DNA from: Escherichia coli
Lineage (GTDB): Bacteria > Pseudomonadota > Gammaproteobacteria > Enterobacterales > Enterobacteriaceae
Length of the DNA: 64,000 nucleotides
Assembly: GCF_003790525.1 (NCBI RefSeq)
Contig: NZ_CP033635.1
Direction: 5' to 3' (one strand)
Positions 15,976 through 16,178 of this stretch are shown piece by piece. Position 1 is the first letter of the stretch. Every line of letters starts with the position of its first letter. Below the pieces are notes generated by a model. The model saw only the letters and a program-made list of their open reading frames with translations, was not told the origin of the DNA and made no database searches. The translations under genes and the position numbers were made by a program.

Positions 15976-16178
15976 ATACGGGATTTTTAAAAATCACTAA
16001 AGAACGCCCAAGAGCATGTGTTTTCTTTAGAATAATCAAAGCGTTGGATTGCCATGTCATATGAAAATCGGCAAAGTTCATATGTAACAAAGTGTCCCAA
16101 TCATGCCCCAAAATGCCCCACAACAAATATTTTTGCCCCATGCATGCCCCAAAAAATCACTTTCCCTCACCCTTGACA

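Follow-up and report, generated by a model that had tools for sequence, protein, structure and literature searches.

Short direct repeats at the end of a prophage raise the question of which protein recognizes them. Such repeats are found in a 64-kb stretch of Escherichia coli DNA (64,000 nucleotides of contig NZ_CP033635.1; "the window" refers to this whole stretch, as analyzed), in which a lambdoid prophage occupies yecE as determined by direct comparison of both junction sequences. A cluster of TGCCCCA heptamers lies just inside the left end of the prophage and is preceded by an 8-bp inverted repeat; a first-pass annotation had considered these elements candidate P'-arm sites for the integrase or sites for an accessory factor. 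Judging from sequence, we consider it likely that the heptamers, of general form TGYCCCA, are arm-type sites for the prophage's own heterobivalent tyrosine integrase (Int). This interpretation is based on several lines of evidence: the same repeat is found on both arms of the prophage, on the same strand, and is clustered nowhere else; the heptamer doublets are conserved independently of the core; the repeat word co-varies with the N-terminal domain (N-domain) of Int; a scan for pairs of doublets leads back to tyrosine integrases; and phage P22 attP contains the same doublets, with phage mv4 attP having the same two-pair layout.

Heptamer Repeats on Both Arms of the Prophage

The junctions, the recombination genes and the candidate arm-type sites are located as follows.

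15956..15975: left junction, int-distal (attR), with core TTAACTGCGTG at 15965-15975; the 5' part of yecE lies to the left and the prophage to the right
60820..60839: right junction, int-proximal (attL), with core TTAACTGTGTG at 60829-60839; yecE resumes rightward
59205-59441, + strand: xis, encoding a 78-aa DUF1233-type excisionase (Xis; Pfam PF06806, E 8e-33)
59497-60810, + strand: int, encoding a tyrosine integrase of 437 aa whose arm-binding domain is N-terminal (aa 7-70)
16093..16120, + strand: triplet of candidate arm-type Int sites on the distal arm (P arm), TGTCCCA at 16093, TGCCCCA at 16104 and TGCCCCA at 16114
16134..16151, + strand: second group of candidate arm-type Int sites on the distal arm, the doublet TGCCCCAtgcaTGCCCCA
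60747..60764, + strand: candidate arm-type Int sites on the int-proximal arm (P' arm), the doublet TGTCCCAatgaTGTCCCA, within the last int codons

The two junctions share an imperfect 20-nt identity, cccgccactttaactgcgtg (15956-15975 compared to 60820-60839). Within this identity the core copies differ at a single position, C at 15972 on the left and T at 60836 on the right, and three more mismatches are found beyond the core; the C/T difference may reflect the side of the crossover or subsequent drift. The identical 11 bp is annotated as attL/attR in phage P27, and an att of 21 bp has been described for yecE (Nakamura 2021). Because xis and int sit at the right end, with the int stop codon only 18 bp from the core, the stretch containing the array is the int-distal arm. 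By the lambda convention its junction is attR, as it had been labeled at first pass, and the phage arm is P; the earlier assignment to the P' arm therefore has to be changed to a P1/P2-like position, with the P'-equivalent doublet found inside the 3' end of int.

The four direct copies of TGCCCCA that had been noted on this arm were confirmed, all on the + strand (16104-16110, 16114-16120, 16134-16140 and 16145-16151). The repeat had been written with an optional leading A, and this base does precede three of the copies, the other being preceded by T. A fifth copy, the variant TGTCCCA, is found on the + strand at 16093-16099. Start-to-start spacings across the array are 11, 10, 20 and 11 bp, a triplet and then a doublet with sites approximately one helical turn apart, and a repeat search detected a 21-nt unit twice within it (TGTCCCAATCATGCCCCAAAA and TGCCCCATGCATGCCCCAAAA). 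The array is 118–176 bp inside the left core, in agreement with the earlier placement within about 190 bp. A search of the int-proximal end, as proposed at first pass, was successful: a matching doublet (TGTCCCA twice, TGTCCCAatgaTGTCCCA) starts 82 bp ahead of the right core on the same strand. The exact word TGCCCCA was not found at the int end, where only the TGTCCCA variant that is also present at 16093 was recovered.

Neither form of the heptamer is enriched across the window (TGCCCCA, 7 copies versus 10.7 expected; TGYCCCA, 17 versus 19.8 expected). However, 7 of the 17 TGYCCCA copies are found no more than 250 bp from a prophage end, and these share one strand (binomial P ~3e-11). Phased doublets were found on the arms only, with four overlapping occurrences compared to approximately 0.0045 expected in 64 kb by an analytic estimate. 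Both arms contain the heptamer, which is found five times at 16093-16151 and twice at 60747-60764 and is unrelated to the core, TTAACTGYGTG.

Conservation of the Doublets in Related Phages

We reconstructed attP, or attL plus attR, for P27, CharmingMan and Stx1_EH1995 (all at yecE), VT2-Sakai and Stx1_9793 (wrbA), JLK-2012 (yehV/mlrA), Tritos (another site), Gifsy-2 of Salmonella, and the Klebsiella phage Mulock. The integrases of relatives with conserved doublets are 60–98% identical to the window Int, and their cores are those of yecE, wrbA, yehV and other sites. At the 3' end of int, every reconstructed relative has a single TGYCCCA-N4-TGYCCCA doublet, which starts 73–82 bp ahead of the core as measured in the window, P22 and Gifsy-2. 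On the distal arm there are one or two doublets per relative (three copies in JLK-2012), starting approximately 128–135 bp and in some cases approximately 160–170 bp past the core start. All heptamers of the relatives are in the sense of int. In seven phages, 3,377 bp of arm sequence contained 38 copies in the forward direction and none in reverse, and these seven phages give an extended consensus of roughly A-TGYCCCA-W-A. Outside the repeats, the distal arms of wrbA and yecE phages can barely be aligned. The first-pass annotation had made its proposal dependent on conservation in related att regions, and the doublets are indeed kept, in position and in orientation, next to yecE, wrbA, yehV and other cores.

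Conservation is not uniform across the array. The first two copies of the triplet were kept in every relative examined. The third copy is missing or degenerate in phi80, PPompW, P27 and CharmingMan. The second distal doublet is present in P27, CharmingMan, a relic arm in phi80 and VT2-Sakai, and absent in Stx1_EH1995. Phages of the 933W/Sp5 type are also among the relatives with equally placed 11-bp doublets.

The conservation data bear on two local explanations for the distal repeats, both of which arise from sequences that overlap or adjoin the array:

16173: -35 element (TTGACA) of a sigma-70-like promoter, overlapping two LexA-box-like repeats, ACACTGT-N8-ACAGT, at 16176-16195 and 16204-16223
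16238-16486: dinI-like gene (Pfam DinI)

The repeats might be regulatory elements of this LexA-controlled promoter. The last heptamer ends at 16151, so that the -35 element at 16173 lies 22 bp downstream and is followed by the two LexA boxes and the dinI-like gene. However, P27, VT2-Sakai and Tritos have doublets at the same distance from the core and have neither dinI nor LexA boxes there, and the heptamers at the int end of the window are far from any dinI. We consider a role as promoter elements highly improbable, though Int bound at the arm could in principle affect the dinI-like promoter. Alternatively, the repeats might be part of the coding sequence of a 58-aa open reading frame (ORF) on the minus strand (15965..16141), which is open in both the window and P27 (locus L58) and which RefSeq lists as a 'hypothetical protein' in E. 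coli genomes. This explanation we regard as extremely improbable: stops or a 10-bp indel disrupt the frame in CharmingMan, phi80 and PPompW, in which the heptamers persist; the ORF terminates within yecE of the host, so that the free phage would have a different one; and the repeats are also found at the int end, in another context. The 'hypothetical protein' annotation over the arm is probably spurious.

The N-Domain of the Integrase

The N-domain of the window Int matches Pfam PF12167 and is predicted to fold as three strands plus a helix, as expected for arm binding. Fold-comparison scores were modest, in keeping with the small size of the domain; because the matches nevertheless form a coherent set, the predicted structure supports an arm-binding fold. 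A sequence search of the PDB detected no relative of the N-domain, and lambda Int is not detectably similar by sequence. PF12167 (DUF3596) is the arm-binding domain of the IntBPP-1 subgroup, which includes the integrases of Stx2a phage and Gifsy-2 (Smyshlyaev 2021). The window Int belongs with this subgroup as judged by its N-domain, which matches PF12167 and is 76% identical to the N-domains of Gifsy-2 and 933W.

The N-domain is the best-conserved part of Int, being 78–86% identical to the window Int, and the core-binding region is the least conserved (48–70%). This combination fits a shared arm code used with different cores. A shared arm code with differing core specificity is also found in lambda and HK022. 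The C-terminal tail of Int is only 31–48% identical, except for the residues encoded by the doublet (V/A-P-x-M/V-S/P-H/Q). The doublet is thus overprinted on the tail of int, and these are its sole conserved residues across the family. In distant relatives int stops at the doublet or shortly ahead of it, so that the C-terminal tail is probably dispensable for catalysis. An integrase-guided protein scan of IMG/VR recovered only copies 97–100% identical, mostly cut at the int end.

Distant Relatives and a Scan for Paired Doublets

Integrases with more diverged N-domains keep the layout and alter the word. In Rac IntR, which uses the ttcA site and has an N-domain 49% identical, TTGCCCC(C)A pairs are found on both arms (TTGCCCCA in Rac-SA53); the defective Rac prophage of K-12 thus seems to have kept arm sites belonging to this family. 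Three PF12167 phages with N-domains 34–42% identical have the same layout and the words GTTCCCA, ATGCACKT and TGGTACA, each with two doublets of 11–14-bp spacing that are 173–196 bp apart:

Pseudomonas vB_Pae_BR319a: GTTCCCAgtttGTTCCCA and GTTCCCAgagtGTTCCCA, 173 bp apart
E. coli phage LMessi: ATGCACTTaaaATGCACTT and ATGCACGTgaaATGCACGT, 196 bp apart
Pseudomonas YMC/01/01/P52: TGGTACA pairs, 185 bp apart

In all three the first pair is located at or just downstream of the int end. For BR319a and LMessi the entire first pair falls outside the int frame, indicating that the pair is independent of the int reading frame.

As an approach that starts from the repeats, we scanned IMG/VR for exact matches to CCCA-N4-TGYCCCA-N(175-205)-TGYCCCA-N4-TGYCCCA, a pattern with 25 constrained positions for which chance matches were estimated to be negligible. 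The scan recovered 88 loci, and at 47 of these an integrase relative at least 50% identical ends 18–60 bp past the start of the first heptamer. When the window Int was combined with the 43 non-redundant ORFs ending beside a doublet, 39 of the 44 proteins matched the tyrosine-integrase catalytic domain and 24 matched PF12167. The other integrases beside doublets have P22-like N-termini or are of a Firmicute type (MWxExLxNGKYRAVERY...GKxKKVSV); a PF12167-type hidden Markov model (HMM) matched these N-termini weakly (E 0.06-2). Many of the non-PF12167 attPs contain a tRNA 3' fragment between the doublets, and their contigs range from 37 to 64% G+C. At a few loci from the scan, the sole large neighboring ORF was on the other side or inverted, or no integrase was adjacent.

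These data raise the possibility, which we put forward tentatively, that TGYCCCA doublets with sites one helical turn apart, in two groups approximately 200–240 bp apart, constitute a deeply conserved code used by integrases with barely or undetectably similar N-domains. Candidate users are the PF12167/IntBPP-1 integrases (933W, P27, Gifsy-2, Rac), the P22-like and Firmicute-type integrases, and several tRNA-targeting elements. If this wider code is real, a single small beta-sheet domain has recognized an unchanged DNA word across phyla, and the attP, attL and attR boundaries of many uncharacterized prophages could be predicted from sequence.

The breadth of the motif could also be accounted for if the doublets were bound not by Int but by the excisionase (a recombination directionality factor, RDF) or by a host DNA-bending protein. 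In particular, a conserved host factor could explain why the motif is found beside non-PF12167 integrases from both low- and high-GC hosts. However, the heptamer is present on both arms, including inside int, and RDF sites would be expected on one arm, as they are in characterized systems such as lambda. The motif stays constant while Xis drops to 40–52% identity, it is common to P22 (xis annotated as 351 bp, versus 237 bp here) and to Firmicute-type elements, and it changes in PF12167 relatives with diverged N-domains. We know of no host factor with TGYCCCA specificity. Binding of the doublets by an RDF or host protein thus appears improbable to us, and the candidacy of the heptamers as arm-type Int sites is strengthened by their presence on both arms, their conservation in relatives, the change of word with a diverged N-domain, and the arm-binding domain of Int itself.

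Comparison with Characterized Attachment Sites

The arrangement in the window resembles that of lambda attP (P1, P2, P'1-P'3) in several respects. In both, Int is heterobivalent and has a distinct N-terminal domain for arm binding; both arms contain a short repeat that does not resemble the core, 50–180 bp from the core, with adjacent sites one turn apart as in P'1-P'3; candidate sites for integration host factor (IHF) lie between the arms and the core; and extra elements are present beside the int-distal arm sites. There are also clear differences. Lambda arm sites have a CAGTCACTAT-type consensus, and lambda P2 is inverted. In the window the word is TGYCCCA, all copies run in the same direction, adjacent pairs are found on both arms, and the P' pair is inside the int frame; and the N-domain, unlike that of lambda Int, belongs to PF12167. 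The arm sites of KplE1 IntS have a different word that contains TAAA.

P22 provides a closer match in sequence. One locus from the scan (L187, 1348-1584) is 100% identical to P22 attP, with doublets at these positions:

1348-1365 of L187: TGTCCCAaataTGTCCCA, inside the 3' end of int and 82 bp before the annotated core, as in the window
1567-1584 of L187: TGTCCCAttttTGTCCCA, beginning 137 bp past the start of the core and oriented likewise

P22 Int differs from the window Int in that it targets a tRNA gene and has an N-terminus outside PF12167 (HMM E 0.06-0.4). P22 is among the few systems with a fully characterized att organization (2023 mv4 preprint). For the Lactobacillus phage mv4, attP has been determined experimentally to span 215 bp, with each of its two ends having a pair of adjacent arm sites that are 11-bp direct repeats (2023 preprint). 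The window has the same doublet-core-doublet organization, with doublets that start approximately 210 bp apart. It differs from mv4, in which the repeat has an AACTAG core and the integrase is of the Tn916 family, a different subgroup in a different host, and also in that the distal arm of the window has up to five copies.

The Inverted Repeat

The inverted repeat that had been noted ahead of the heptamers was confirmed, with all eight positions complementary.

16058..16084: inverted repeat CATATGAA-N11-TTCATATG, arms at 16058-16065 and 16077-16084, 8/8 complementary, 8 nt ahead of the first heptamer

The element adjoins the first heptamer, between the core and the arm sites, and the int-proximal arm showed nothing comparable, as expected for an RDF site. 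We collected 30 distinct variants of the yecE-type arm from IMG/VR; these sequences are related and so provide only moderate support. Among the variants 95% of cells were paired, and two positions exhibited UA->CG double changes. Compensatory double-change cells numbered 7 compared to 1.7 ± 1.1 in shuffles, and the signal collapsed in slid registers. TC dinucleotides at 16057/58, 16068/69 and 16078/79 are invariant with a 10–11-bp phase; the compensatory changes favor dyad symmetry. The 11-nt center is conserved as much as the repeat arms. Stx1_EH1995 and JLK-2012, for which Xis is 52% identical to the window Xis, have phased TCGAYGAA direct repeats at this position, and homologous Xis proteins are found in all close relatives. 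These features suggest that the inverted repeat is probably a site for an accessory factor, Xis, an assignment we make with less confidence than that of the heptamers. The accessory-factor idea of the first-pass annotation thus fits the inverted repeat better than it fits the heptamers. Findings on Gifsy-1 Xis could not be transferred, as that protein is a different, AlpA-like one.

The main rival to an Xis site is a vestigial hairpin, the inverted repeat being a decayed hairpin-terminator that serves as a tI/sib-like 3' end for int transcripts crossing attP. Many family members do have a hairpin of approximately 50 nt followed by T5 directly ahead of the distal pair of heptamers (dG -24 to -30 kcal/mol, z -5 to -7), and in the window lineage pairing is kept by compensatory UA->CG changes with G-U intermediates. 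However, the window sequence does not behave as an RNA hairpin or terminator, folding weakly (-6.6 kcal/mol, z -0.8) with no T-run, no terminator call and no Rfam match. Conservation of the 11-nt 'loop' equals that of the stem, the phased TC dinucleotides look like protein contacts, and Stx1_EH1995 and JLK-2012 have their direct repeats in place of a hairpin. For these reasons we consider a decayed terminator unlikely. The probable Xis site resembles the lambda Xis sites X1-X1.5-X2 in lying between the P-arm Int sites and the core, and the long hairpin and T-run of the relatives, downstream of int and beyond the core, resemble lambda tI/sib; the window element differs from both in being a short 8-bp dyad with a conserved center, neither a clear set of phased direct repeats nor a stable terminator.

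Perfect-stem hairpins followed by TTTTT were folded for IMG/VR loci L118, L127, L131, L138, L140 and L173, and a similar motif was seen by eye at L122, L137, L148, L157, L160 and L177. The stem words vary among the phages (TTACCGCAA, TTAGCGCAA and TTGCCGCAA).

A Proposed Organization for attP

Additional elements that enter into the proposed organization are located as follows.

16034..16046, + strand: candidate IHF site AATCAAAGCGTTG, matching WATCAANNNNTTR at every position and placed between the left core and the heptamers
60797..60809, + strand: IHF-like sequence AATCAGTGGGTTA, with one mismatch, between the P' doublet and the core and overlapping the int stop codon

The sequence AATCAAAGCGTTG is the only perfect match to the IHF consensus in the window. 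IHF-like sequences with at most one mismatch are found at the matching position in P27, CharmingMan and VT2-Sakai, and none is found in some arms. Sequences like AATCAGTGGGTTA are present at the same offset in P27, CharmingMan, JLK-2012 and Tritos, the match being perfect in Tritos.

From repeat placement, conservation, N-domain co-variation and the predicted fold, we infer how binding, its stoichiometry, the roles of IHF and Xis, and a division among the distal pairs could be organized. The central and C-terminal domains of Int would bind core DNA (TTAACTGYGTG in yecE), and the N-domain (PF12167) would bind adjacent heptamer pairs one helical turn apart. In attP, one pair would lie approximately 82 bp from the core on the int side, and one or two pairs approximately 128 and 169 bp away on the other side. 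The heptamer pairs would dock the four Int protomers of the recombining tetramer, bridging arm and core DNA as in lambda. Bending proteins at 16034-16046 and 60797-60809, for which IHF is the candidate, would fold the arms onto the core, and DUF1233 excisionase or another accessory factor at the inverted repeat may bend the arm and help Int to load. In the integrated state, the array just inside the left junction would represent the P-arm half on attR, and excision would require it. That there are extra copies on the distal arm suggests that different distal subsets serve integration and excision; in lambda, P1 and P2 belong to differing subsets for integration and excision.

Several points weigh against the assignment of the heptamers to Int. 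A literature search found no paper on the arm sites of this integrase family or on its binding or recombination, and matches to TGCCCCA and TGTCCCA in a literature search on the heptamers were only to phiC31 or primer sequences. A potential concern is that the int-proximal doublet is within coding sequence, so that its conservation could be partly at the protein level; this concern is countered by the poor conservation of the tail otherwise and by the location of the doublet outside int in distant relatives. The heptamers of the phi80 relic are intact approximately 1.1 kb from phi80's own attP, indicating that part of the conservation reflects shared ancestry rather than current function. The same heptamer is found in attPs whose integrase N-domains are outside PF12167, which formally leaves room for a non-Int factor. 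Finally, the IHF assignments are consensus matches alone.

In kind and in architecture the element is a textbook one, and the conceptual gain is correspondingly small. What is added is the sequence for this Shiga toxin (Stx)-phage integrase family, for which we found no published description; the same word occurs in P22 attP. The analysis provides a testable att map for medically relevant integrases, including those of Stx phages of the 933W/Sp5, P27 and BP-4795 types and those of Gifsy-2 and Rac, with a predicted attP of roughly 270 bp that extends from approximately -82 to approximately +187, counted from the start of the core. Such a map is needed for minimal attP vectors, for predicting which prophage remnants can be excised, and for interpreting 'attB-in-prophage' sites, which are relic attR junctions with arm sites retained.

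Other Conserved Sequences and Relic Arms

One further conserved sequence was found between the left core and the array.

16005..16016, + strand: 12-mer CGCCCAAGAGCA, conserved in the family with the consensus CGYCCARGAGCR and located 30 bp inward of the core

The 12-mer is invariant or nearly so in otherwise unalignable arms with yecE, yehV, wrbA and other cores. Its offset is unchanged in VT2-Sakai, JLK-2012, Stx1_EH1995, Gifsy-2, Mulock and several IMG/VR loci. The sequence looks like a degenerate heptamer that shares the orientation of the others, and P22 has CGTCCCA between the core and the distal doublet. The 12-mer is possibly a weak heptamer-like site or an accessory-factor site.

Among 5,426 complete E. 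coli genomes, the best match to 15900-16500 of the window was 97.3% identical, and at least 80% of this region was covered in only 153 genomes. This low identity and limited coverage indicate that this exact combination of prophage arm and dinI variant is uncommon in the collection.

Relics of a yecE attR, consisting of a 5' fragment of yecE, the core and a heptamer arm, were observed in phi80 (2402-2720) and in PPompW_132418 (approximately 760-970). The PPompW copy has been described as a secondary 'attB-in-prophage' used by Stx2 phages (Nakamura 2021). Because the yecE fragment runs on into a phage arm with partly decayed heptamers, the sequence indicates that this 'attB-in-prophage' is a relic attR, rather than a captured attB alone.

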